Below are positions 1 through 55,840 of a DNA stretch of 64,000 nt, piece after piece. The notes beneath the pieces were generated by a model, which saw only the letters and a program-made list of their open reading frames with translations, ran no database searches and was not told the origin of the DNA. This stretch comes from Thermodesulfobacteriota bacterium (lineage in GTDB: Bacteria; Desulfobacterota_D; UBA1144). The stretch spans positions 87,796-151,795 of the forward strand of contig JAYYZJ010000003.1 of the NCBI GenBank assembly GCA_036340075.1, given 5' to 3'. Within the stretch, counting starts at the first letter, position 1, and the number at the start of each line of letters is the position of its first letter. A program made the position numbers and the translations under genes.

Positions 1-2
1 TA

Positions 3-350
3 AAAGATTATATTCGTAGAAGAGGAGAAAATATTAGCTCCTTTGAAGTAGAAAATCTTATTTCAACTCACCCTAAGATTGAAGAATCTGCTGCTATTGC
101 AGTAAAGCTTGACGAACAAGGTAGGCATTCGGAAGACGAATTAATGAGCGTCATTGTTTTAAAACAAGGAGAAAAACTTGACCCAAAGGAATTAATAGAA
201 TTCTTGGAACCAATAATGCCCAAATTTATGATTCCAAGATTCATTAGATTTAGAGATGCTCTTCCAAAAACTCCAACTAATCGAGTTCAGAAAGTCAAAC
301 TTAGAGAAGAAGGTGTAACCAAAGACACCTGGGACGCATTAAAGAAATAA
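3..350 (+). CDS. ATP-dependent acyl-CoA ligase (CaiC-like), C-terminal part; truncated by window start
   Basis: Frame open from position 3: KDYIRRRGENISSFEVE...PRFIRFRDALPKTPTNRVQK, the AMP-binding C-terminal motifs. Confidence 0.85.
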   Translation, partial: KDYIRRRGENISSFEVENLISTHPKIEESAAIAVKLDEQGRHSEDELMSVIVLKQGEKLDPKELIEFLEPIMPKFMIPRFIRFRDALPKTPTNRVQKVKLREEGVTKDTWDALKK

Positions 351-404: not shown

Positions 405-1754
405 CTACTTATCCCAAGGATACTTTTTTACAGGCTTTTGCTTGTAAGGATTTTTCATATCAGGATTAAAATATTTAAATGTATTTACATGCTGATCAGT
501 ATATGAACCTGGAGGATAATATTTATCATAAAAATCTAAGTCCAAATTCTGAGCCTGAAAAACTAACCTCATATACATAGGGTCGACAAATGCTGGAAAT
601 GAACCATATGTTTCATATATGTATTCAGCTACCGACTTCACAATTTCTTTTGTTGTGTCAGTAGGCTTCGGAGCCTTAACTAAATGCTTATCTGGTTCCT
701 CATATGGAAAAGGCTTTGTATCTTTCCAGGCAGCCCATTTATGCTCATCCATCTTATCAAAAGCTTCCGACATTGATTTATAATACGGTGGACAATATCC
801 TTCAAATATTCCGTCTTTACCAACTGGTCTTGTTGGTCCAGCTTTTGGCTGCTCGAATCTAAATCCAAGCCCTTTGAAAAGCTCTGGATTAGAACCAAGG
901 GTAAAACGAGGAATCAGTCCTGTAAAAGTCCATCCGCCTAATCCAAGAGCTTGAAGTGCTAACGACATATTTTGACAAATAAATGCTTGTTCAACATTTA
1001 AACCTGTCAATATTCTTACTTCAAGATCATAAAGTGACATTTTAACTTCTTCTTTTATTCTTCCTTTTTCTATCCATTTATCTTGTCCGCAGGAACGGTT
1101 ATTCTTGTCATCCCAAATATTGAAGGCATAGGTGCTACTACAATACAGGGTTAAGAGGTTTAAATATTCCTCTGTTATGTCAGTTACTGGAATAAATGTT
1201 GTTGTTCCGGGCTTATTGGTGTTCCATTGATTAAAATCAAACAAGCCAGGCATTTTGTCAGGTAAATTTGCTCTTCCATCTTCTAATTTAACCAGGCCTT
1301 CTCTATATAGCTCAAGCAATCTTTCAATTTTATCGTTTCTATCAAGTTGAAAGAACATATCAAGTTCTTTGTCTTTGGGTAGCATGTGTTTTACATCTAC
1401 ATAGTATAAGCCAGAGTCATTGGTAAAGAACAATTCTGTTCCATGATTGTTACACGCAGACGGCCAAGTTCTTCCTGTCCATTGACACAATAAATCAATC
1501 CCATTTTCTGGAGGCAAGTCTGCTAGACACAAACCTGTTAATCCAGTTCCAGCCCATACCAACATTGCTTCTTGAAACTCTGTCAAAGGTATTGGTGGAA
1601 TATCAGATTTGTGAGCCAAGCTGCTATCGGATGGTAGCTCCATTCCTGTTCCAAATCTTCTTGATCTCCTATTAAATATTGCTTCAAACAAAGGATAGTT
1701 TAAAGCTGCATCGTAATTAACTTTCCCATTGGTTTTTCCGTTTTTCTTTGCCAT
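405..1754 (-). CDS. Uncharacterised large nitroreductase-fold protein (449 aa)
   Basis: EAIFNRRSRRF, WPSACNNH and QNMSLALQALGLGG resemble FMN-binding nitroreductase motifs; RBS-like AAGGGAG upstream. Confidence 0.6.
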   Translation of the reverse strand: MAKKNGKTNGKVNYDAALNYPLFEAIFNRRSRRFGTGMELPSDSSLAHKSDIPPIPLTEFQEAMLVWAGTGLTGLCLADLPPENGIDLLCQWTGRTWPSACNNHGTELFFTNDSGLYYVDVKHMLPKDKELDMFFQLDRNDKIERLLELYREGLVKLEDGRANLPDKMPGLFDFNQWNTNKPGTTTFIPVTDITEEYLNLLTLYCSSTYAFNIWDDKNNRSCGQDKWIEKGRIKEEVKMSLYDLEVRILTGLNVEQAFICQNMSLALQALGLGGWTFTGLIPRFTLGSNPELFKGLGFRFEQPKAGPTRPVGKDGIFEGYCPPYYKSMSEAFDKMDEHKWAAWKDTKPFPYEEPDKHLVKAPKPTDTTKEIVKSVAEYIYETYGSFPAFVDPMYMRLVFQAQNLDLDFYDKYYPPGSYTDQHVNTFKYFNPDMKNPYKQKPVKKYPWDK

Positions 1755-1815: not shown

Positions 1816-2250
1816 TTAAATTTGTTGTTTTAGCTGGTTTCTCTTGATTTCTTTGATAGCGAGCTTCAAGGTAGAGATGCCCAAAGTAGAACATTTGGGC
1901 CTAGAAAGCGTTAATTCTTCTCCTAAAATATCCGACATTAATTCTGGCCCCATATTTAGAACTTCTTCTATGTCTTTTCCTATAACCATTTCTGATATAA
2001 TAGATGTTCCAGCCTGACTAACTATGCATCCTTCACCTTCAAACTTGAAGTCTTTTATGACTCCATCATCATCTACTTTAAGACAAATGCTAATTATGTC
2101 ACCACATCCTGGATTGCCTCCCTTCTGGAGCACATCACAGCGACCTGCTTCTACATCTGCATCTTCAATAGTCCCTGTATTCCTAGGATTTTCATAATGG
2201 TCTAGGATGAAGTCCATTAACTCCTGTTTCTCTTGTGATTCGTCGGACAT
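1816..2250 (-). CDS. SufU/IscU (NifU N-terminal) family Fe-S scaffold or sulfur-transfer protein
   Basis: DHYENPRN, NPGCGD, GEGC and RPKC carry the three conserved Cys plus Asp; no LPPVK motif. Confidence 0.88.
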   Translation of the reverse strand: MSDESQEKQELMDFILDHYENPRNTGTIEDADVEAGRCDVLQKGGNPGCGDIISICLKVDDDGVIKDFKFEGEGCIVSQAGTSIISEMVIGKDIEEVLNMGPELMSDILGEELTLSRPKCSTLGISTLKLAIKEIKRNQLKQQI

Positions 2251-2261
2251 TATCTTTCCTG

Positions 2262-3104
2262 CTACTTCTCAATTGGTGCTTGAACTAAGTTGCCCCATTC
2301 GGTCCACGAGCCATCATAGTTCTTAACATCTTCAAACCCAAGTAGATAAGTTAAAACAAACCAAGTGTGCGAAGATCTTTCTCCAATTCTGCAATAAGCA
2401 ATAACATCATCTCCAGTCTTAAGTCCTGCACCGTTTTGATAAATTTCAACTAATTCATCTGCTGATTTAAATGTACCGTCTTCATTAGCAGCTGTAGCCC
2501 AAGGAACACTAGCAGCATTAGGGATGTGTCCTCCTCTTAATGCTCCTTCTTGTGGATATGCTTCCATATGAAGTAGTTCACCAGAATATTCTTTAGGTGA
2601 ACGAACATCAATCAATGGCTTATTTTGATCGCTATGAGCCCTTACATCATCTCTAAAAGCCCTAATTTTAGTGTTTAGGTTGCTTACTTTATAATTTGAC
2701 GCTGGAAAATCAGGCTTGTCTTTAACTACTGGCTTACCTTCGTCTATCCACTTTTGTCTTCCCCCATTCATAATAAGACATTTTTCGTGTCCATAAATTT
2801 TAAAGGTCCACAAAGCATAACATGCCCACCAATTACTCTTGTCTCCATAAAAAACAACTGTGTCATCGTTAGTAATGCCTTTTGATGACAACAATGCTTC
2901 GAAATTTTCTTGATTTACATAGTCTCTTACAAGGCTGTCTTGAAGTTCGGTTTCCCAATCAAGCTTAATTGCTCCTTCAATATGACTAACTTCATAAAGA
3001 AGTATGTCCTCGTTTGATTCTACAATTTTAATTCCATCTTTGTCCTTGTTTTCTAAAACCCAATCGGTAGTAACAAGAACCTCAGGATGTGCATAATCTG
3101 CCAT
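2262..3104 (-). CDS. Two-domain rhodanese / thiosulfate sulfurtransferase (SseA/CysA type)
   Basis: [18 protein letters not shown], active-site [19 protein letters not shown]. Confidence 0.93.
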
Positions 3105-44179: not shown

Positions 44180-45346
44180 ATGGCTGATTTAAGAGATGTT
44201 TATATTATTGGAGTAGGTCAACACCCATGTGGCAAATTTCCTACTAAAGCCGCTCACGTTCTTGGAAGAGAAGCAGCTTGGGCAGCTATAAAAGATGCTG
44301 GCATATATGCCAGAGATATCCAAATGGGTTTTTGTGGACATGTTTATCAAGGAATGGGAGTTGGACAAAGAACGCTTAAAGATCTCGGACTAGTCGGCCA
44401 ACCAGTTATTAATATAGAGGGAGCCTGCGGAAGCGGAACACTAGCTTTTTGGGAAGCCTGGAGAACTATAGCCTATGGGCAAAGTGATATTATTTTGGCC
44501 TGGGGAGTAGAAAACTTAAGCAAAGTAATGTCGGGAGGACCTTTGCCATTAGAAGAAGACGATATTGAAGTTGCACTAGGAATGAGCATGCCAGGATTGT
44601 ATGCGATGAGAGCAAAAAGATACATGGAAGAATATGGAATTTCTGCCGAAACACTTGCCAAGGTTGTGGTCAAAAGCAGAAAGCACGCAGCTCAAAATCC
44701 AATAGCTCAATTTAGGAAAGAAACTACCGTAGAACAAGTAATGGCAGATCCTGTTATTGCAGATCCCCTAACAAGGAGTATGTGTTGCCCCGTTGGAGAC
44801 TCGTCTGCCGCTGCAGTCTTAGTTTCAGCGGACATGCTAGATAAAATTAAAAGAGACAAAAATAGAATGCCAATAAAAGTACTCGGTTGCGCAGCCCAAT
44901 CAGGAGGCTATTCATCGTCTACTGGTCTAACTTGTGATCCTTCAGAAAATGTTACAAGAACATCTAAGATGGCTTATGAACAAGCAGGATTAGGGCCCGA
45001 AGATATGGATATAGCCGAGATTCACGATGCGTTTGCTATTGCAGAAATAATAGTCGCGGAAGCACTAGGTTTTGTAGGAAAGGGAGAAGGGTCAAGACTA
45101 ATCGAAGAAGAAAAATCAAATTATGATGGAGATATTGCAATCAACCCAAGCGGTGGGCTGTTATCAAGAGGCCACCCCGTTGGCGCAACAGGACTTCTCC
45201 AGACCGTAGAAATTGTAAACCAGCTACGAGGAGAGGCAACAGGATTTCAAGTTCCAGATGCCAATGTTGGCCTTATAGAAACTATGGGAGGCGCACAGCC
45301 TGCTATGGATGGCATAACATGCGTAGTTAGCATTCTAGGAAAATAG
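44180..45346 (+). CDS. SCP2/SCP-x-type thiolase
   Basis: NIEGACGSG (Cys kept), EIHDAF, NPSGGLLSRGHPVGATG. Confidence 0.9.
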   Translation: MADLRDVYIIGVGQHPCGKFPTKAAHVLGREAAWAAIKDAGIYARDIQMGFCGHVYQGMGVGQRTLKDLGLVGQPVINIEGACGSGTLAFWEAWRTIAYGQSDIILAWGVENLSKVMSGGPLPLEEDDIEVALGMSMPGLYAMRAKRYMEEYGISAETLAKVVVKSRKHAAQNPIAQFRKETTVEQVMADPVIADPLTRSMCCPVGDSSAAAVLVSADMLDKIKRDKNRMPIKVLGCAAQSGGYSSSTGLTCDPSENVTRTSKMAYEQAGLGPEDMDIAEIHDAFAIAEIIVAEALGFVGKGEGSRLIEEEKSNYDGDIAINPSGGLLSRGHPVGATGLLQTVEIVNQLRGEATGFQVPDANVGLIETMGGAQPAMDGITCVVSILGK

Positions 45347-45368
45347 AAACAACTTATAGGAGATTAAT

Positions 45369-45779
45369 ATGAGCGAATCAGAAGAAAGAAGAGTATTACA
45401 CCAAGACTTTTTTACAGAAGACCCAGAGCCTAGGCTTATTGCAGGAAAATCTAAGTCATCTGGCAATTATACATTCCCACCATACTTGGCAGACCCAGTT
45501 TCTTTTCAAGATGATATAGAACATGTTCCACTTCCAAGAAACGGAATACTGCATTCGTTTACAATTGTTCGAAGAAGCTTGCCCGATTTCCCCGTTCCAT
45601 TTGGATTAGGTTTAATCGACTTCCCAGAGCAAGAAGTGAGAGTAATGGCTCAAATTGAAGCCGATGATTTAGAAAATGATTTAAAATTAGATATAGAAGT
45701 AGAAACAATTGTCGGGGTTGTTAGAAAAACAAAAGATGGTACCGACATCTACTCCTACAAGTTTAGACCGGTTAAATAA
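45369..45779 (+). CDS. DUF35 OB-fold thiolase partner, cysteine-free
   Basis: LIAGKSKSSG..TFPP, GILHSFTIV, PFGLGLIDF, YKFRP; directly after the thiolase. Confidence 0.82.
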   Translation: MSESEERRVLHQDFFTEDPEPRLIAGKSKSSGNYTFPPYLADPVSFQDDIEHVPLPRNGILHSFTIVRRSLPDFPVPFGLGLIDFPEQEVRVMAQIEADDLENDLKLDIEVETIVGVVRKTKDGTDIYSYKFRPVK

Positions 45780-45824
45780 GCATTTTCTCTAGTTTTAATT
45801 AAGCCTTAAAGCCTTTTAAACTTA

Positions 45825-45853
45825 TTGCAAAAAAAGACCAAAAATTGTACTAT
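45825..45853 (+). promoter_or_regulatory. Sigma70 promoter for the nitroreductase
   Basis: TTGCAA-17bp-TACTAT, then GGAGG RBS. Confidence 0.55.
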
Positions 45854-45899
45854 TAATAAGTTGCTTTAAATAATTTTATCAAAACAGGAGGGGAATATA

Positions 45900-46715
45900 A
45901 TGCCTTTAAATTATCAAAGCGTAGATTTTATTAAAGTTTTAGGCGAAAGACGTTCTTGCAGATTTTATGATCCAGAGAGACCGGTTGAGCCTGAAAAAAC
46001 ACAAGCTATATGTCAAGCTGCTAGAAATGCTTCACATATGGGTAACGCCAATTGTATAACTGTTACTATCGTTGAAGATCAGGGAACTAAAGACAAGTTT
46101 ACTGAGATTGTTTCAGCGTTTAACATCCCAATGGCAAAAATGGCTCCAGTGAGTCTAGTTTTTGCTCTTGATAGGGATTTATGGTACAACGGGCTACCAA
46201 AAGGACTTCCAGCACTATTCAAAATGGGTGGTGTTAATCCAAGTCATGGATGGAGTATGGACAATATTGAAAATACAACATTACCAAGACTAACAACGTT
46301 TCCACCGGAGATAGTTGCCTATCTTCTTTCATGTGAAACTGGAATGGCTATGGCGTCAGCTCAGTTAATGGCTACAGCCTTAGGTTTAGGAAGTTGTTGT
46401 TATGCTGGACAAGGACCAAAAATTGCTGAAGTTTTAGGTTTTAGAGAATCGATGCAGTTTGTTTGGGCAATGGCTATTGGTTACCCAGGAGAAACAGTTG
46501 AGTCCATGGGATGGAGACCAAGATCTCCATACGGAGATATCATTTACAAAGAAAAATGTGGTGTTCCTGCTGTCGCAGACCCAGCCGTCGACAAAGAGCT
46601 GGAAGCACTCGGCATGATGGGAGAGCCATCAGCGCTTACACCGCAAAGACTTGCAGATGTAAACAAAGCTGCTGAAGCTATGGGTCTACCAACTAGAACT
46701 GACGAAAACGGTTAA
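45900..46715 (+). CDS. Nitroreductase family protein
   Basis: ERRSCRFY, ASHMGN, AQLMATALGLGSC, AIGYP. Confidence 0.85.
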   Translation: MPLNYQSVDFIKVLGERRSCRFYDPERPVEPEKTQAICQAARNASHMGNANCITVTIVEDQGTKDKFTEIVSAFNIPMAKMAPVSLVFALDRDLWYNGLPKGLPALFKMGGVNPSHGWSMDNIENTTLPRLTTFPPEIVAYLLSCETGMAMASAQLMATALGLGSCCYAGQGPKIAEVLGFRESMQFVWAMAIGYPGETVESMGWRPRSPYGDIIYKEKCGVPAVADPAVDKELEALGMMGEPSALTPQRLADVNKAAEAMGLPTRTDENG

Positions 46716-46728
46716 TTTTATAAATAAA

Positions 46729-46749
46729 AAGGGGGCTTAAAGCCCCCTT
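46729..46749. terminator. Rho-independent terminator hairpin, possibly bidirectional
   Basis: AAGGGGGCT-TAA-AGCCCCCTT with A/T-rich flanks. Confidence 0.75.
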
Positions 46750-46760
46750 AATTTATTAGC

Positions 46761-47531
46761 ATGACCACAGTCCAAAAAATTGATCAATTGGCTTCTATGA
46801 TTAAGGAGCACAAGAATGCTGTTGCTTTCTCTGGAGCAGGAATTAGCACTGATTCAGGGATTCCAGACTATAGAACACCTGGATCTGGAGCCTGGACTAA
46901 GTATGACTCCTCAATTGTTTCAATACCCGGCTTCCTTAACGATCCAACTCAATATTATGAATATGCTATGGAGATGTATCCCATAAGAAGATCTGCAAAG
47001 CCAAACAAAGCACACTTGTTGCTAGCGAAACTCGAAAAGGAAGGATTTATAAATGGGGTTATTACTCAGAATGTTGACGGTCTTCATCTTGAGGCTGGAA
47101 GCAGAACTGTTCATGAACTCCATGGTTCTACAAGAAGAGCTTCATGTTTACAATGCGGACAACTTTATTCAATGGACGAAATAATGGAAAGAGTAGAAAA
47201 AGGTGAGAATCCACCTATCTGTAAAGAATTTGAAGGTAATCCTTGCCAAGGGCTTATTAAGCCCACAACGGTTTTTTTTGGAGAACCTCTTCCAAAAGCA
47301 CCCTGGGATGCATCGGTTGATAAATCCCGAGAGACCGCTCTTATGATTGTAATTGGATCATCTTTGCAAGTTTCCCCAGCAAATAGCTTGCCAGACATTG
47401 CTCTTCAAACTGGCTCTGAGCTAGTAATTGTAGATTTGATGAACACCCCCTTTGATTCCAGGGCCCATCTTGTTATCAACGAAAGAGCAGTCCTGGTTGC
47501 TGAAATGCTGGAAAAAAAGCTTGCTTTGTGA
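46761..47531 (+). CDS. cobB: NAD-dependent protein deacylase (sirtuin)
   Basis: GAGISTDSGIPDYR, TQNVDGLH, ELHG, FGEPLP, GSSLQVSPA. Confidence 0.93.
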   Translation: MTTVQKIDQLASMIKEHKNAVAFSGAGISTDSGIPDYRTPGSGAWTKYDSSIVSIPGFLNDPTQYYEYAMEMYPIRRSAKPNKAHLLLAKLEKEGFINGVITQNVDGLHLEAGSRTVHELHGSTRRASCLQCGQLYSMDEIMERVEKGENPPICKEFEGNPCQGLIKPTTVFFGEPLPKAPWDASVDKSRETALMIVIGSSLQVSPANSLPDIALQTGSELVIVDLMNTPFDSRAHLVINERAVLVAEMLEKKLAL

Positions 47532-47633: not shown

Positions 47634-47662
47634 TTGACTAATTAATGGCACTTTGCTTTAAT
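47634..47662 (+). promoter_or_regulatory. Sigma70 promoter for the ADC-like gene pair
   Basis: TTGACT-17bp-TTTAAT with TG extension; AAGGAGG RBS before 47753. Confidence 0.55.
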
Positions 47663-47752
47663 ATTAAGTAACGGGGTGCAGAAAATTCAAGTGGTTTTCT
47701 CACCAGCAATCTACCTTACTAACGCAAATCCAAAAGAAGGAGGTCTCTAACG

Positions 47753-48724
47753 ATGCCAAGTCATCTTAATGTAGACACAAAGTATTGGACTCTCACAGAT
47801 GAGATTCCAAATCCACCGGTTGAGAGAGACATTAAAACATGGATAATCGGAAACCCTTCCGATCCTCTATGGGATATTGATGTTCTTCCTCTAACCTATA
47901 CTAATTCAAGATGGTCAGCTTTTGTTGTTGACGTACCAGGCGATGCTAGACAAAGACTATGTCCAAATCCACCATTAACAATTTGGGATGGAGAGGATGC
48001 AGAACTTGTTGAGTATTGGTATGTTAACCACCTTAACACAATGCTAGGCCCTTATCTTGAGTTCGGAGTAACAATCTCCGCAACACACACTGACTCAAAA
48101 GGTAATACATGGAAAGCAGGTTACTATCCATATATGTACCTAACTAGTGATAGTGCTGTTGATGCTGGTCGTGTTTTAGGATTCCCTAAAAAAATGGCCT
48201 ACATCAGAGTTACTGAGCATGGCGGTGAAAAAGGCGATGACTATTTCGGTTATTCAATGACTAGAAATGGTTACCTTTTAACAGCACAGCAAGGTAAATA
48301 TGATGATGCACCAGTTAAACCACCATATTTCTATGGTAAAACTGACTGGGGTAAATTCAACATGAAAGTTATCACACGTCCTGACGTTGCAAGTTCAGAA
48401 TGGCAGTTAACATATCTACCATCTAAACTTCCACCTGCATTTAATGTAGAAGGACACAGATTCCAAATCAAAAACGAGTTAACAAGAACAGCTTCTGGCG
48501 ATGCCATTGACTGGTTCGCACAAGCAACTCCATTTGATAACATGGGAGCAGAGGTAAAAGTAAACGAAGTTAAAGGTTTAATTTCATTTACATTCGACCT
48601 TATTATCCCACCTGCTGAAGTTGTATGGTCAGAAACTTATGAAAGACCAGCTAGCTACAGAGGATACGCAACACCATATCAATATGGTTTAAGACAACAG
48701 TTCCCAATTCACCAAGGTGCGTAG
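47753..48724 (+). CDS. Acetoacetate decarboxylase superfamily protein, paralogue 1
   Basis: GPYLEFG, YMYLTSDSAVDAGRVLGFPKKMA (PKK Schiff-base lysine motif). Confidence 0.8.
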   Translation: MPSHLNVDTKYWTLTDEIPNPPVERDIKTWIIGNPSDPLWDIDVLPLTYTNSRWSAFVVDVPGDARQRLCPNPPLTIWDGEDAELVEYWYVNHLNTMLGPYLEFGVTISATHTDSKGNTWKAGYYPYMYLTSDSAVDAGRVLGFPKKMAYIRVTEHGGEKGDDYFGYSMTRNGYLLTAQQGKYDDAPVKPPYFYGKTDWGKFNMKVITRPDVASSEWQLTYLPSKLPPAFNVEGHRFQIKNELTRTASGDAIDWFAQATPFDNMGAEVKVNEVKGLISFTFDLIIPPAEVVWSETYERPASYRGYATPYQYGLRQQFPIHQGA

Positions 48725-48754
48725 GAACTTTAATTTTTTTAGGAGGAAATTAAC

Positions 48755-49726
48755 ATGGGAAAACAAGCAAACGAATACAGCTATCCATGGTTAGAAGAAG
48801 GTGAAGTTCCACCGCTACCACTTGACAGAGATAGAATTCACATTATCTCTCAGGGTGTTGCCGATCCTGTCTTTGACTATGACATCGTCCCTTTAACATA
48901 CACAGAAAGCCGCTGGATGGCTTTTGTTGTTGAAGCAGACGAAGCTAATTTAAAAGCCGTTATTCCTGATCCAGTTGAGCTTCATGACCCAATCCTTGAG
49001 TTCTGGTATGTTATACACAGAAACACAATGCTTGGACCATACATGGAGTTCGGTGTAACTGCCTCATCAACAGTAAAAGGCAGTGACGGACAGGTTTGGA
49101 AAGGTGGATATTATCCATATATGTACCTTTCAAACGATTCACCAATTTTTGCAGGTAGAGAGCCTTTCGGGTTCCCTAAAAAAGCTGCTTATATTGCTGC
49201 TTTTGAGCATGGAACTAACGATAACTACTTCAACATGACAATGGAAAGAAGAGGTTACGTATTCCATTCTGCAAATGGTCGTTATTCTGATAGACCAACC
49301 CCACACAAACCAACATTCTATGGTAAAACAGATTGGGGTAGATTAAACTACAGAATCACAACTCACCCAAGTGTATCTAACAGTATTCATCAAGTTACAT
49401 ACCTTGGTTCTGAGCTACCACCACAGTTCGGTACAGGACACAGGTTCCAATTAGATCCTAGTTCTGTTAGAACAGCTACTGGTGAAGACGTAAGAGCATG
49501 GTACTTAGCTGGTACACCTTTTGACTTCATGGGAGGTTCATTAGGTAACGTGACATGTCACGGATTGATTTCGTTCACATTTAACTTAATCATTCCACCA
49601 GCATCAATTGTATGGGAGAAAACAGTAGAAAGAGCTGAATCTGATTTTGGCGACTTACTCTACTCAACACCTTACAAATATACTATGAGACACAGATTTA
49701 TGACACCTTACTATCCAGGTGCATAA
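48755..49726 (+). CDS. Acetoacetate decarboxylase superfamily protein, paralogue 2
   Basis: GPYMEFG, YMYLSNDSPIFAGREPFGFPKKAA; collinear with paralogue 1. Confidence 0.82.
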   Translation: MGKQANEYSYPWLEEGEVPPLPLDRDRIHIISQGVADPVFDYDIVPLTYTESRWMAFVVEADEANLKAVIPDPVELHDPILEFWYVIHRNTMLGPYMEFGVTASSTVKGSDGQVWKGGYYPYMYLSNDSPIFAGREPFGFPKKAAYIAAFEHGTNDNYFNMTMERRGYVFHSANGRYSDRPTPHKPTFYGKTDWGRLNYRITTHPSVSNSIHQVTYLGSELPPQFGTGHRFQLDPSSVRTATGEDVRAWYLAGTPFDFMGGSLGNVTCHGLISFTFNLIIPPASIVWEKTVERAESDFGDLLYSTPYKYTMRHRFMTPYYPGA

Positions 49727-49740
49727 GAACCGGTACTTTT

Positions 49741-49772
49741 AGGGCTCTTCTTTTGAAGAGCCCTTCTTTCTT
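49741..49772 (+). terminator. Rho-independent terminator after the ADC-like pair
   Basis: AGGGCTCTTC-TTTT-GAAGAGCCCT then TCTTTCTT. Confidence 0.82.
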
Positions 49773-49801
49773 AAAACACTATTACATGATAAATTTAATG
49801 A

Positions 49802-51262
49802 ATGAGAAAGTGTTCCGCTTATATTAATGGCCAACTCATAGAACCAAAAAATTCATTCATCAGAGAAAATCCGGCAACCCTAGAGCCGTTACAAGAAGTT
49901 TATTTATGTTCAGAAAAAGAAATAAGTATGGCGTGCGAGGCAGCCAACGGGGCTTTTGGTGTTTGGTCTTCTACCCCAGGAAATGTTAGAGGAAGTATTT
50001 TGTTTAAGATTGCAGAAAAAATTAGAGAGCAAGCAGACTACCTTTCGTTAATTAACACAGAAGAAACTGGAAAACCTATAAATGAAAGCAAGCTAGTAGA
50101 ATTAGCAGGGGTAGCAAGAACATTTGAATACTATGCGGGCCTTGCATCCAAAATACAGGGCGAGTCACAAATAATTACACAAGACTTGATTTCGTTAACG
50201 ATTAAAGAGCCTATTGGTGTTATTGCCATGATTTTGCCATGGAACTTCCCTATGCTCCTAGTTGCATGGAAAATAGCCCCAGCGCTTGCTGCTGGCTGCA
50301 CAATGGTCATTAAACCATCTGAGCTTACACCGTGTGGGACACTAGAGCTTGCAAAAATATCCGAGGAGTGCGGTGTTCCCAAAGGAGTAATTAATGTTTG
50401 TCCGGGACAAGGGGATGATGCAGGCAGGGCACTTATAAACAATAATCTTATTTCAAAAATTTCTTTTACAGGTTCAACGGGTGTAGGCAAGCAGATTGTA
50501 GAAGAAACAGCGAAAAATTTACCTAAGCTTTCTCTTGAGCTAGGAGGAAAGGCTCCTAATATAATTTTTGAAGATGCATCAATAGAATCTTGCATAGAAG
50601 CAAATTTAAGAGGGGGGTTTTTTAACCAAGGAGAAAATTGCACCGCTGTTACCAGGCTCTTAGTAAACAAAAAAATATACAATAAATTTAAAAAAGTATT
50701 TCTAAAAAAGATTGAACAAATAAAACAAGGGGATCCTTTAGAAAAAGAAACAGAAATAGGAGCTCTCATCTCAGATAACCATCTTAAAAAAGTCATAAAT
50801 CTTGTCAATCAAGGAGTAAGCCAAGGAGGAGAAATTTTAATTGGAGGAGAACAGAACCCTAAGCTCACCGGTCATTTTTTTGCACCCACAGTAATTGAAA
50901 TTAATCCTTCAGAAGACAACGTGTTGTTTAATGAAGAGGTGTTTGGACCAGTCGTTGCCATAATGCCGTTCGAATCAGAGGAAGAGGCAGTAGCCCTGGC
51001 TAATCAAACCAGCTATGGACTTGCCGGTGGCGTATGGACACAAGATATTTCAAGGGCAATTAGAGTTTCTAAAAAAATTAACGCAGGATATTTGTGGATA
51101 AATACTTATGGAGGGATAATTCCCGAAACACCATATGGTGGGTTTAAGCAAAGCGGTTCAGGCAAAGAGCTTGGACATGCTGGATTAGAAGAGTTTTGCA
51201 GGTTAAAAAATATTAGCATTTTCACAGGAGATAGTCTTCCTAAGTGGTATGGGAACAAATAG
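49802..51262 (+). CDS. NAD(P)-dependent aldehyde dehydrogenase
   Basis: PWNFP, FTGSTGVG, LELGGK, NQGENC, EEVFGPV, PYGGFKQSG. Confidence 0.95.
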   Translation: MRKCSAYINGQLIEPKNSFIRENPATLEPLQEVYLCSEKEISMACEAANGAFGVWSSTPGNVRGSILFKIAEKIREQADYLSLINTEETGKPINESKLVELAGVARTFEYYAGLASKIQGESQIITQDLISLTIKEPIGVIAMILPWNFPMLLVAWKIAPALAAGCTMVIKPSELTPCGTLELAKISEECGVPKGVINVCPGQGDDAGRALINNNLISKISFTGSTGVGKQIVEETAKNLPKLSLELGGKAPNIIFEDASIESCIEANLRGGFFNQGENCTAVTRLLVNKKIYNKFKKVFLKKIEQIKQGDPLEKETEIGALISDNHLKKVINLVNQGVSQGGEILIGGEQNPKLTGHFFAPTVIEINPSEDNVLFNEEVFGPVVAIMPFESEEEAVALANQTSYGLAGGVWTQDISRAIRVSKKINAGYLWINTYGGIIPETPYGGFKQSGSGKELGHAGLEEFCRLKNISIFTGDSLPKWYGNK

Positions 51263-51891: not shown

Positions 51892-52386
51892 TTAAAATAA
51901 GGTTCCTTTTAAAAGCATATTCATTCCTGGAATCAATAGTGTTACGAATGATTCAGCAATAAATAAGTACGCTAATAAAGTTCCAAGAGCTTTACCTTGT
52001 GCAAGCACTAGGAATGCTACAAGAGTAAGAACAGCCCACGCAATGTTGAACAGTCCTAATTCCATTGCTCCTACGCCTAAGAAATACTGTCCGTACCATA
52101 GGAAAACTATAGTAGCGAATAGACAATACCATCCAAGCCCTTTACCGCCATGTCCAAGAGTGAACACACCGAAAGCTATGACATAGATCAATGCAAATAC
52201 TGAAACAAGAGCTGTACTTGCAGCCCCTTCAGGCCCAAGACCAGCACCAGTAAATGCAGCAATAAGAATTAGCACAGCTACCGCGCCGTTTAGCATACCA
52301 ACTTCTTTTCCATCGGTTTTACCTAATAAGGTCATACCGTTACAAAAGAATACGAAACCTACGAGTAAAAGTACATATCCTAACAT
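51892..52386 (-). CDS. AmiS/UreI family urea/short-amide channel
   Basis: MLG..LL.VG.V...NG...LGK.DGKE...LN and GKGLGWYCLF; ~6 hydrophobic helices; AAGGAGG RBS. Confidence 0.85.
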   Translation of the reverse strand: MLGYVLLLVGFVFFCNGMTLLGKTDGKEVGMLNGAVAVLILIAAFTGAGLGPEGAASTALVSVFALIYVIAFGVFTLGHGGKGLGWYCLFATIVFLWYGQYFLGVGAMELGLFNIAWAVLTLVAFLVLAQGKALGTLLAYLFIAESFVTLLIPGMNMLLKGTLF

Positions 52387-52530: not shown

Positions 52531-52977
52531 TTACCCTTCTTTTCTTTGAACCAGTATGACCCATATGCCTTTTTGAACAACATCCCCGGTCTGATTGACA
52601 ACATTAACTTCCCAGTTAAGAAAACCCATATTTGGTCTTTTATGTTCTTTTTTCTCAACTAATTTTCTAGTTATTTTAATTGTGTCACCAGGTTTTACAG
52701 CTCCTGAAAATCTCCAATCTTGGAGTCCCATAAAAGCGATAGTTGCTAATCTTGGCATGGTAAACCATAGACCTGTTGCAATAGACAGCACACACATTCC
52801 ATGAGCAACACGTGTTTTAAAAACAGTGTTTTTGGCAAACTCTTCATCTATATGCATATTGTTAAAATCAGCAGACAAACCAGCAAAGTTGACTACGTCA
52901 GCTTCTGTTACAGTCCTTCCACTTGATTCATGCTCGGCATCTACTTCTATATCTTCATAATATATTTTGTCGTCCAT
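52531..52977 (-). CDS. MaoC-family (R)-enoyl-CoA hydratase/dehydratase
   Basis: RTVTEADVVNFAGLSADFNNMHID, RVAHG, VKPGDT. Confidence 0.92.
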   Translation of the reverse strand: MDDKIYYEDIEVDAEHESSGRTVTEADVVNFAGLSADFNNMHIDEEFAKNTVFKTRVAHGMCVLSIATGLWFTMPRLATIAFMGLQDWRFSGAVKPGDTIKITRKLVEKKEHKRPNMGFLNWEVNVVNQTGDVVQKGIWVILVQRKEG

Positions 52978-52992: not shown

Positions 52993-53415
52993 TTAAACTG
53001 GTTTAAATTTAGCAAAAGTTACTTCATCAGTGGCGTCTTCAAAAACAACTTCAACCTCCATTCCTATTGTTACGCTTTCAGGATCGCAGTCTACAACATT
53101 AGACATCATTTTAACCCCATCCTCGAGCTCAATTAAAGCAACAACATAAGTTTCGCCTTTGTATGCTTTAGTAGGTCCCATATAATGAACCGAGTATGTC
53201 CACACTTTACCCTTCCCAGTTGATTCAACCCATTCAAAATCCATATTAACAGAACCAGGAAATGGACTTATTGCTCTAGGATAGAAGAACACCTTCCCTG
53301 TTTCTTTACACTTAGGTAATAATAGTTTGTGATTTTTTGTTCCATCCCAGAACGGTTTAGTTTCCGGTCTAAAATCTGGTAATGGTTTTTGATATTCAGT
53401 TTTTTCCTCTGACAT
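52993..53415 (-). CDS. DUF35 OB-fold protein with degenerate Zn ribbon
   Basis: PETKPFWDG, LLLPKCKETG..FFYPR, GKGKVWTYSV, IGMEVEVVF. Confidence 0.9.
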   Translation of the reverse strand: MSEEKTEYQKPLPDFRPETKPFWDGTKNHKLLLPKCKETGKVFFYPRAISPFPGSVNMDFEWVESTGKGKVWTYSVHYMGPTKAYKGETYVVALIELEDGVKMMSNVVDCDPESVTIGMEVEVVFEDATDEVTFAKFKPV

Positions 53416-53441: not shown

Positions 53442-54653
53442 TTAACTTAATGGTTCATTGCCTAATAATATTGTACTATGAGCAGAAACTATACCACCAT
53501 TTCCATGAACCAAAGCAGTACTTGGGTTTTTAACTTGTCTTGCCCCTGCATCTCCTCTAAGCTGTAAAACAGCTTCAACAACGTGATGCATTGCACCTAA
53601 GTGAGCTTGTGACAAAAGTCCACCATGCGTGTTAAGAGGTATGTCCGCATCTTTATGTAGTCTGCCTTCCAGAGCAGCAGCTCCGGCATGGTTTCTAGGA
53701 ACAATGCCTAAACCTTCAAGCTCAAGAAGAGTTGTGATAGTAAAGCAGTCATATAAAAAAGTTATATCAACATTTTCATTAGTCATGCCAGCTGTTTTAA
53801 ATGCTTTTTCACCTGATGTTTCAATGGCACCATAAATTTGATCTAAATCAGCACATGAAGTTAAGTATTGATGAGAGAAGCCTTGTCCCATTCCGTGTAG
53901 GTAAACAGGGTCTCTTTTTAAGCCGAGCTCTTTGGCTTTAGCATTTGTTGTTACTATAAATGCTGCACCACCATCAGAAACAATAGAGCAGTCAAATTTT
54001 GTTAATGGAGAAGCAAGCAATCTTGTGTTCAAGATATCATCAAGGGACAAATCATCTTTGTTCATTGCGTTCTCTTTTAGTTTGGCATGCTCCCTCATTG
54101 TTACAGCAACAGAGTGTAGATGCTCTCTTTTTCCTTTTGATTCGTGAAGATATCTTTGAGCCATTAGGGCATACCCACCAGGTGTTGTTAATCCATATGG
54201 ATACTCAAATTCACCATGACACATTTCCCTAATAAGAGCAATCATCCCAGTAGACGAAATTCCTGAAAGTGTGTTGTCTCCCCTAACACATAAAATAACT
54301 TCAGCCTGTCCCGAATTTATTGCCATTGCTGCAGCTGCAGTCATCCAAACCGCAGTCGCACCACCAATAGCAACAGACTCAAAATATTTTGGATTTATTC
54401 CAATATAGTCTGCAAAAGTAGTACAATGCATAAAAGTTTCTTCAACAAGTGAAAAGGCTGTTATAATTCCGTCAACATCTGACTTCTGTATTCCAGCATC
54501 CTCTATCGCTAGTTTAGATGCCTCAGAAAGAAAATGAAACGAACTTTTTCCAGGAATCTTTCCTTGTTCAGTTTCTCCAACACCAACAATCCCTATTTGG
54601 TTTTTCTTTAAAAGTTCTCTAGTATCTTCAATATTTGGTATTTGTGTTCCCAT
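53442..54653 (-). CDS. Thiolase-fold protein lacking the nucleophilic Cys (Ltp2-like putative aldolase)
   Basis: IGGAT in place of the Cys motif, DCSIVSDGG, LYDCFT, NTHGGLLSQAH. Confidence 0.82.
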   Translation of the reverse strand: MGTQIPNIEDTRELLKKNQIGIVGVGETEQGKIPGKSSFHFLSEASKLAIEDAGIQKSDVDGIITAFSLVEETFMHCTTFADYIGINPKYFESVAIGGATAVWMTAAAAMAINSGQAEVILCVRGDNTLSGISSTGMIALIREMCHGEFEYPYGLTTPGGYALMAQRYLHESKGKREHLHSVAVTMREHAKLKENAMNKDDLSLDDILNTRLLASPLTKFDCSIVSDGGAAFIVTTNAKAKELGLKRDPVYLHGMGQGFSHQYLTSCADLDQIYGAIETSGEKAFKTAGMTNENVDITFLYDCFTITTLLELEGLGIVPRNHAGAAALEGRLHKDADIPLNTHGGLLSQAHLGAMHHVVEAVLQLRGDAGARQVKNPSTALVHGNGGIVSAHSTILLGNEPLS

Positions 54654-54694: not shown

Positions 54695-55840
54695 TTAAAT
54701 TCCAAGCTCCTTGGCAATAATTACATGTTGTATCTCAGAAGTACCTTCCGTTATAGATGATAATTTTGCATCTCTATAGTAACGTTCTGCTGCATATTCA
54801 GTAGCATAACCATAACCGCCCAATACTTGTATTCCTTCGCTTGCACACCATTGTACAACTTCTGCAGAGTACAATTTAGCCATTGATGCCTCTTTAACAC
54901 AAGGGCGTCCTTGATCGTATAGCCATGCGGCTTTGTAGCCTAGCAAACGAGCAGTTTCTATTTTTGTTGCCATTTGGGCGAGTTTAAAACTAATAGCTTG
55001 AAATTTGTTGATTGGTCTACCAAAAGCTTCCCTTTCTTTTGAATAATTGAGCGCATATTCAAATGCTGCTGTTGCAAGGCCAACACTTTTAACCCCATGT
55101 GATATTCTCGCAGCAATTAAAGTTTCCATTAAAGCCTGAAACTTGCCCTCTTCTTCGCCAAGCAAGGCGTTTTGAGGAAGCTTGCAATTCTCAAAAACAA
55201 GTTCGGCAACATCTGATGACCTATGTCCCAATTTATGTATTTTTCTTGAAACCTCGAATCCCGGTGTATCTTTGTCTACTATAAAAATACTAATACCGTT
55301 TTTTTTGTCTTCTTTATTTGTATAGGCAGCAACAATTACATAATTACAAATAACTCCATTTGAGCACCATGTTTTTGTTCCATTTAAAATCCAAGAGTCG
55401 CCATCTTTAGTAGCATTAGTTTTAATTGCACGAGCATCTGAACCAGCATTAGGCTCAGTAATAGCAAGAGCGCCAATCATTTCTCCAGCAATTGATGGTG
55501 TAAGATATTTTTCTTTTTGTTCTTCTGTGCCAAATTTAGATACGGGCAAAGAACCTAGATCTACGTGAGCAGCTACCCCTTTAGCTATCCCCGCACAAGT
55601 TTTCCCGAGCTCCTCAGCTAGAATACATTGAGTAACCTTATCTAAACCAAGACCACCATATTTTTCATCAAAACAAATACCTAATAACCCCATTTCAGCC
55701 ATTTTGGGAAAAAGCTCTAAGGGAAAGGATTCCGTTTTCTCTGCTTCTTCAACCAGTGGTTCTACTTCTTCTTTACAGAATGTTTGTATAGCATCCCTCA
55801 TCATATTTTGTTCGTCAGAAAAATCAAAACATAAGCTCAT
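54695..55840 (-). CDS. Acyl-CoA dehydrogenase
   Basis: AITEPNAGSD, LNGTKTW, REAFGRPI..FQ, GGYGY, YRDAK...ITEGTSEIQ. Confidence 0.95.
   Translation of the reverse strand: MSLCFDFSDEQNMMRDAIQTFCKEEVEPLVEEAEKTESFPLELFPKMAEMGLLGICFDEKYGGLGLDKVTQCILAEELGKTCAGIAKGVAAHVDLGSLPVSKFGTEEQKEKYLTPSIAGEMIGALAITEPNAGSDARAIKTNATKDGDSWILNGTKTWCSNGVICNYVIVAAYTNKEDKKNGISIFIVDKDTPGFEVSRKIHKLGHRSSDVAELVFENCKLPQNALLGEEEGKFQALMETLIAARISHGVKSVGLATAAFEYALNYSKEREAFGRPINKFQAISFKLAQMATKIETARLLGYKAAWLYDQGRPCVKEASMAKLYSAEVVQWCASEGIQVLGGYGYATEYAAERYYRDAKLSSITEGTSEIQHVIIAKELGI

Follow-up and report, generated by a model that had tools for sequence, protein, structure and literature searches.

Organization of the gene pair

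We analysed a stretch of 64,000 nucleotides from a Thermodesulfobacteriota bacterium (assembly GCA_036340075.1, contig JAYYZJ010000003.1, positions 87,796 to 151,795; below, the window, numbered from its first letter), and within it two adjacent genes, A and B, whose products resemble acetoacetate decarboxylase (ADC). A preliminary description had taken the pair for a self-contained operon of two equally long paralogues with its own promoter, strong ribosome-binding sites (RBSs) and a terminator. The following features were located:

47634..47664, + strand: promoter-like site TTGACT-17-TTTAAT, spotted by eye (TTGACT at 47634-47639)
47738..47743, + strand: RBS of A, AGGAGG
47753..48724, + strand: gene A, 972 bp, 323 aa, predicted ADC fold, type GRVLGFPKK (K146, E87, E103, S52)
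48741..48746, + strand: RBS of B, AGGAGG
48755..49726, + strand: gene B, 972 bp, 323 aa, predicted ADC fold, type GREPFGFPKK (K142, E82, E98, S52)
49741..49772, + strand: intrinsic terminator-like hairpin (10 bp) followed by a T-run

Both reading frames, both RBSs and the terminator were thus found where they had been described. The two proteins are 48% identical over 320 columns (E 9e-97), and every shared sequence block reported for them occurs in both. The promoter stood up in part: the site seen by eye is absent from the list returned by a promoter scanner for this stretch, while about 180 nt 5' of A and about 95 nt 3' of B belong to a unit that is duplicated in relatives, which gives the site some backing. 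The description as a self-contained operon is supported; the unit of leader, A, B and terminator stands duplicated in relatives. The assembly under study holds a single copy.

Fold and active-site residues

Both proteins exceeded the cut-off of the Pfam ADC profile PF06314 (63.8 bits for A and 89.9 for B; cut-off 29.8), and both failed the NCBIfam acetoacetate decarboxylase model NF002614 (24.5 and 57.1 bits; cut-off 150). A structure model of B (mean predicted local distance difference test score, pLDDT, 82.6; Foldseek E 5e-16) matched the acetoacetate decarboxylase structure 3bh2 with Z 24.2 and a root mean square deviation of 3.8 Å over 237 aligned residues. Five chains of the ADC superfamily were matched at Z 21-24, the next match having a Z of 6.4. 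Given its identity to B, A is expected to adopt the same fold. The proposed superfamily membership is therefore confirmed by the profile for both proteins and by the structure model for B.

The family is sharply bounded. Among 1.8 billion representatives, 15 matches were obtained at E<=1e-30, and ordinary ADC-like proteins of about 245 aa were reached only near E 1e-4 in the same search; the ESM Atlas yielded generic ADC clusters only. By name, the sources are Dadabacteria/Thermodesulfobacteriota, Thermoleophilia, Desulfofundulus/Desulfovirgula and archaea, with Desulfofundulus luciae, D. thermocisternus and Geoglobus ahangari as cultured hosts. In the open-access literature, supplements aside, we found no paper on this subfamily, none joining Dadabacteria with acetoacetate decarboxylase, and none tying the family to Geoglobus, Desulfofundulus or Thermoleophilia.

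Residue conservation was determined on 373 unique full-length sequences (161 A and 212 B, numbered as in B). S52, E82, W84, E98, K143 and D257 are invariant, K142 is present in 372 of the 373, and H88 shows no or almost no variation in either type. The equivalents of Lys115, Lys116, Glu61 and Glu76 of acetoacetate decarboxylase are thereby conserved across the family, and the PKK lysine is kept in both paralogues as described. In contrast, Arg29 of acetoacetate decarboxylase, which we take to be its carboxylate-binding residue, is replaced by Ser (S52) in all 373 sequences. Arg114 and Gln118 of Sbi00515 (4zbo), presumably forming its alpha-carboxylate site, in the helix that precedes the lysine, align to Ala138 and Leu142 of A, and the corresponding positions of B are Ala/Phe-like. 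As judged from these alignments, neither A nor B carries the known carboxylate anchor of acetoacetate decarboxylase or of MppR/Sbi00515, from which we infer a neutral carbonyl substrate.

The preliminary description had set the GRVLG of A against the canonical GRE of B and proposed unequal active sites. Ahead of the lysine, however, A aligns without gaps to Sbi00515, whereas B has the GRE..xxPKK spacing of acetoacetate decarboxylase, so that GRVLG appears to be the second known, MppR/Sbi00515-type spacing rather than a broken motif. Both types keep every catalytic position invariant, and the core looks homogenised, which weakens the case for unequal sites. Residues specific to one type concentrate in three places: the N-terminal arm, the pre-lysine helix and the C-terminal tail. 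In a divergent B subclade (P0061, P0064 and also P0049), GHE.YGFGKK replaces GREPFGFPKK.

Compared with characterized enzymes, A and B share with acetoacetate decarboxylase (EC 4.1.1.4; 3bh2, 3bgt/3bh3, 3c8w) the fold and the two Lys and two Glu residues, but they differ from it by the Ser at the Arg29 position, by chain length (323 vs about 245 aa), by the presence of two gene types instead of one and by sequence (16-19% identity). Acetoacetate decarboxylase belongs to the context of solventogenesis; A and B, unlike it, lie among genes of acyl-CoA catabolism. MppR (4jm3), Sbi00515 (4zbo/4zbt/6eej) and Swit_4259 (5upb) likewise have the fold (Z 21-23) and the Schiff-base lysine, but these aldolase/dehydratases of the superfamily, which do not decarboxylate, are single-gene homo-oligomers with 11-15% identity to A and B. 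By the features tested, A and B thus appear to form a tight subfamily that is neither a true decarboxylase nor of the MppR type; the Ser at position 52 and the scores below the NF002614 cut-off agree with the earlier view that the pair is probably no ordinary acetoacetate decarboxylase. Tandem ADC-like pairs have a precedent in Sso1221/Sso1222 of Saccharolobus solfataricus, which also lie in a catabolic cluster. These are described as MppR-like and phenol-induced (PMC7820114), which sets them apart, and they are not named among the matches of the A/B family.

Pairing, duplication and history

We surveyed 160 loci, all anchored on B (the best 80 of 239 and the best 80 of 305 matches). A lies directly before B in 143, B stands alone in nine and eight are cut by a contig edge. 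The order A then B therefore holds in 143 of the 152 loci that can be judged, spanning Dadabacteria, Thermoleophilia and Bacillota, and homologues are not mostly single genes. Matches occur in 50 of 61 genomes of the host's class (in two of these as fragments or a weak match only) and in 26 of 201 genomes of the class Thermoleophilia, each of which has two or four. Many closed genomes carry the operon unit of 2.2-2.4 kb (leader, A, B, terminator) twice, with 98-100% identity between copies; in 12 of 16 locus pairs compared, of which two repeat genomes already counted, such near-identical copies have different flanks.

In a balanced tree of 32 A and B sequences, the two types form sister clades of mirrored topology (Shimodaira-Hasegawa-like approximate likelihood ratio test, SH-aLRT, 99). 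The split was also obtained outside residues 50-126 with the motif columns removed (SH-aLRT 97). The segment B50-126, which holds E82, W84, H88 and E98 and was chosen post hoc from a sliding window, groups by lineage instead, and monophyly of A was rejected for it by the approximately unbiased (AU) test (p-AU 0.002). This pattern suggests that the catalytic strands are kept similar by gene conversion, whereas the arms and tails retain the character of their type. The old duplication proposed earlier is supported, and the pairing is kept across phyla.

Two deviating arrangements were seen. In soil-type relatives, a lone B-type gene has a TetR regulator on one side and a split B12-dependent mutase on the other (L043/L044/L072/L100:10001-10987). 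At L197:7967-13380, L198 and L199, divergent ADC-like copies flank a regulator of about 1000 aa with a BTAD domain and adjoin a SatP/YaaH-like channel; A and B types were confirmed in L197.

Conserved partner genes

The genes considered as partners of the pair are:

1..350, + strand: acyl-CoA ligase, 3' end (whole gene G000:C3:86451-88145)
405..1754, - strand: N, orphan protein of 449 aa with a weak nitroreductase-fold match
44180..47531, + strand: upstream cluster of recurrent neighbours (Cys-bearing SCP2/BbsB-type thiolase, DUF35, small nitroreductase, sirtuin)
49802..51262, + strand: aldehyde dehydrogenase (ALDH), a local neighbour and not a conserved partner
51892..52386, - strand: AmiS/UreI-type channel
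52531..52977, - strand: MaoC-type hydratase
52993..53415, - strand: DUF35 (ChsH2 OB-fold/zinc ribbon) subunit of T1
53442..54653, - strand: T1, thiolase-fold protein without the nucleophilic Cys, with a YDCF motif (Sal/SLP aldolase type)
54695..55840, - strand: acyl-CoA dehydrogenase (ACAD)

Within Thermoleophilia, we compared the 26 pair-bearing genomes with the first 20 listed of the 175 that lack the pair. T1 was found in 23/26 of the former and 0/20 of the latter, a MaoC of at least 49% identity in 22/26 and 0/20, and both N and a CoA ligase of at least 43% identity in 26/26 and 1/20. An ACAD orthologue of 55-62% identity lies near the module in all five genomes tested. Among ten genomes of the Bacillota (Desulfovirgula) family, T1 and a MaoC of at least 49% identity occur in the same two as the pair, and in G061 T1, MaoC, ligase and N form one run. 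In the host's class, T1 is present in 12/12 pair-bearing and 4/12 pair-lacking genomes. Linkage of the module to the pair thus recurs in three phyla. The pair-bearing short-contig bins G078 and G081 have no T1, N or ligase and may be misbinned, and the three genomes with a lone B-type gene lack A, T1 and MaoC. The conserved partners of the pair are the CoA ligase, ACAD, MaoC, T1/DUF35 and N, and not the ALDH.

The preliminary description had suggested that an aldehyde product is handed to the ALDH directly downstream. This enzyme follows B directly in just 11 of 123 loci, its orthologue (E<=1e-110) was found neither in the 26 pair-bearing Thermoleophilia nor in Desulfovirgula (G061), and it is present in three genomes without A. 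Moreover, the terminator separates it from B. We therefore rejected the ALDH as a conserved partner.

The T1 motif reads YDCF in the window, in G088 and in Desulfovirgula. The UreI-type channel also belongs to the Bacillota module and was not found in three Thermoleophilia; in relatives that duplicate the pair it is duplicated too, separately from the A/B operon, with copies 94-98% identical in sponge-type relatives (L063:4266-4799, L066:7321-7854). The second, Cys-bearing thiolase with its DUF35 recurs, in Thermoleophilia and Bacillota together with a protein resembling HMG-CoA synthase, and the one in Thermoleophilia seems to have no catalytic Cys. Also recurrent nearby are small nitroreductases, a sirtuin and a channel for small solutes (UreI; SatP-like in two Thermoleophilia).

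N had no sequence match in Pfam, NCBIfam or the PDB, and its best Foldseek matches were to nitroreductases (E 2e-3). It has a paralogue (G000:C12:139375-140682) and belongs to a nitroreductase-like family of about 440 aa with 624 matches and no Pfam entry. N often adjoins the CoA ligase. In the window, a SufU-like gene and a rhodanese (1816-3104, - strand) lie directly upstream of N, and RNA contigs cover both. Tandem DUF2148 ferredoxin-domain paralogues were seen at L103:11092-14216 and L214:17799-19530; in L103 they are followed by N, directly downstream of the pair. In the Thermoleophilia cassette (L216-L232), a stand-alone thiamine pyrophosphate enzyme resembling acetohydroxyacid synthase and a CbbQ/NirQ AAA protein recur beside T1, as do an unknown protein of 362 aa and a large protein (with a VWA domain in L033). 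An aminotransferase (G000:C12:56651-57826) is 61% identical across phyla to L023:11088-12290 and follows B directly in Desulfovirgula.

Codon usage and presence in RNA libraries

The preliminary description had noted an enrichment of TTC, TAC, AAC and GGT codons and inferred high expression. As a measure we used the fraction of C-ending Phe, Tyr, Asn and Ile codons (NNC), ranked over 859 genes. B ranks first (0.56; p 2.6e-10) and A third (0.44), against 0.21 genome-wide, with the AmiS/UreI-type channel gene in second place and the ALDH at rank 341 (0.22). A general chi-square measure of codon bias places B 10th and A 22nd among 763 genes, and several genes of the dnaA region on the same contig are likewise high. 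GC content at third codon positions (GC3) of A and B matches that of the neighbours (0.27-0.31; ALDH 0.30), so that the bias is no simple GC shift. An origin as a foreign islet was ruled out, as GC3 is like that of the neighbours and the pair occurs in 50 of the 61 genomes of the class. The codon bias was thus confirmed, and with it the codon-based signs of high expression.

Twenty RNA runs from 14 studies contain the stretch, 17 of them with at least half of its words. RNA contigs lie over both A and B in all four runs compared; one contig spans the gap between the genes, and one of run X3 stops at 49776, just beyond the terminator. In X3 the mean contig depth was about 1,155 over A/B, 12-90 over the neighbours and 7-37 over genes at 1-3.3 kb. 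These depths were not used to rank genes, as the runs had been picked via A/B and the data are contigs; they record presence in RNA libraries and not a rank of expression. The thin RNA-contig cover of the ALDH was likewise not counted as evidence.

Discussion

Taken together, the fold, the invariant Lys and Glu residues, the lost carboxylate anchors, the constant A-B order, the joint duplication and the linkage to the partner genes support a reading to which we assign a probability of roughly one half: A and B would constitute a two-subunit, lysine Schiff-base hydratase or C-C lyase for a neutral aldehyde or ketone, acting in a probably CoA-dependent retro-aldol pathway. A and B would likely form a single heteromeric enzyme. 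The order of the route is drawn by analogy to the Shy/Sal bile-acid route. The ligase would activate an acid to its acyl-CoA, the ACAD would oxidise this to the enoyl-CoA, MaoC would hydrate it to the 3-hydroxyacyl-CoA, and T1/DUF35 would release acetyl-CoA and a carbonyl compound from the latter. In A/B, this carbonyl would be held as an imine/enamine by K146/K142 and cleaved further, E103/E98 serving in acid-base catalysis; the carbonyl side of such a route would suit a Schiff-base enzyme that has no carboxylate site. Alternatively, A/B might come at the start of the route and produce the acid from a small uncharged carbonyl taken up via the UreI-type channel.

The acetyl-CoA could be assimilated via the ethylmalonyl-CoA pathway. 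Ccr scores above its cut-off in the genome, and homologues of the mutase, lyase and hydratase are consistent with this pathway; genes of this kind lie at G000:C3:85165-86451, C8:38633-42859 and C4:38255-39421, and the double hot-dog hydratase among them is immediately next to the CoA ligase of the partner set. A route via acetone carboxylase was rejected, as Hydantoinase_B was not found in this genome (92.9% complete), and its two HMGL-like matches are proteins of 519 and 527 aa, which is not the size of HMG-CoA lyase. As substrates we weighed isovalerate/acetone, butyrate/acetaldehyde, carnitine, dihydrophloroglucinol and dienoic acids, with no evidence that discriminates among them. To our knowledge, neither an ADC-like pair nor protein N occurs in the Shy/Sal and ChsH/Ltp2 steroid side-chain routes. 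The combination of ACAD, MaoC, DUF35 and a thiolase-fold aldolase with a YDC motif is shared by these routes and the partner module (PMC12329534). By clustering, the 1-Mb genome has two ACADs, which argues against steroids as the substrate.

Several observations weigh against this reading. Invariant Arg residues elsewhere in the proteins (R25, R165, R230, R293, R312) could form a carboxylate site. With the motif columns removed the AU test was neutral (p 0.535), and two quicker, larger trees failed to recover A as a single clade, a result explained by the mosaic of a core that groups by lineage and a remainder that groups by type. The balanced tree thus gives two separate clades and most loci hold the pair, but the larger trees do not unite A, and B stands alone at nine of 152 loci. 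Three genomes of 2.9-3.5 Mb of the Dadabacteria type (G085-G087) hold a single B-type gene and no A, and in G077 an additional copy of the A clade stands alone; adjacency to the other type is therefore not a strict need of either. In three genomes, G161 among them, the copies diverge around a regulator. No A-B fusion was found among the 598-2000-aa proteins searched, which is weak evidence; the lone long candidate, a B with an unrelated low-complexity tail, was rejected. T1 was not found in three of the 26 pair-bearing Thermoleophilia, and in three Thermoleophilia aligned its motif reads YDSF. Since the YDC motif is catalytic in CtSal and a Cys-to-Ser exchange abolishes CtSal activity (PMC12329534), the assignment of T1 to the Sal type is weaker there. 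Finally, related genomes are not independent, so that the co-occurrence counts overstate significance.

The same chemistry and pathway could be served by A and B as two independent homo-oligomeric enzymes working on consecutive steps or related substrates, which we regard as unlikely. Known ADC-fold enzymes are homo-oligomers, and MppR is described as a homotetramer (PMC7820114). Such an arrangement would also suit the absence of fusions, the different spacing before the lysine (MppR-type in A, decarboxylase-type in B) and the lone B genes in genomes that lack A and T1 and keep ligase and N. On the other hand, the pair is duplicated as one unit, the grouping of B50-126 by lineage suggests that both sites are kept alike, and the residues that distinguish the types sit in the arm, the pre-lysine helix and the tail. 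Somewhat less probable still is a beta-keto-acid decarboxylase for acetoacetate or a longer 3-oxo acid, in which another residue holds the carboxylate and a ketone is released. The nearest structures and sequences are indeed true decarboxylases (3bh2, 3bgt), the Lys and Glu equivalents are invariant, and the neighbouring thiolase and DUF35 make or use 3-oxoacyl-CoA. However, the universal Ser at the Arg29 position, the low NF002614 scores, the low identity to these enzymes in chains about 80 aa longer, and a Z of 23.2 to the non-decarboxylating Swit_4259, within 1 of the best, all speak against it.

We consider it improbable that a stand-alone enzyme hands an aldehyde to the downstream ALDH. 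Although the two are adjacent here and in 11 loci, and unrelated ALDHs (26-31% identity) near the Thermoleophilia cassette make some ALDH step plausible, the locus counts, the orthologue search and the intervening terminator argue otherwise, as does the lack of codon bias in the ALDH gene. Very improbable, lastly, is an abundant non-catalytic carrier or trap that stores a reactive carbonyl, bound as a Schiff base, on behalf of the CoA enzymes: A/B do exceed the partner enzymes in gene dosage and codon bias, but the Lys, both Glu, the His and the Asp of the acid-base set are all invariant, as would be expected for catalysis.

Under the two-subunit Schiff-base reading, the A/B branch likely performs the C-C cleavage step of an undescribed catabolic pathway, which may be central to a widespread group of marine bacteria. 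Tentatively, we extend this to the view that the ADC superfamily has in A/B its first two-subunit member, and that A/B takes the key, high-dose step in an undescribed retro-aldol pathway linked to CoA (a ligase, ACAD, MaoC, a Sal-like aldolase, an orphan flavoenzyme and a channel for small molecules). This pathway would be the chief source of carbon and energy for Dadabacteria from the ocean surface to sponges and soils, and it would be shared with Thermoleophilia of fresh water, thermophilic sulfate reducers and some archaea. As for the food source of marine Dadabacteria, a comparative study proposes peptidoglycan and phospholipids, and acetoacetate and acetone go unmentioned in the available portion of its main text (bioRxiv 10.1101/2020.06.22.165886). 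New here are the controlled co-occurrence of the module, the mosaic core of A and B and the rejection of the link to the ALDH. An operon with the strongest NNC codon bias of a 1-Mb genome, near-identical double copies in many relatives and a presence in marine metatranscriptomes from 14 studies can now be assigned six or seven defined partner enzymes, open to joint expression and assay. Knowledge of its substrate would reveal a hidden carbon flux and bring new Schiff-base chemistry to a sparsely characterised superfamily.

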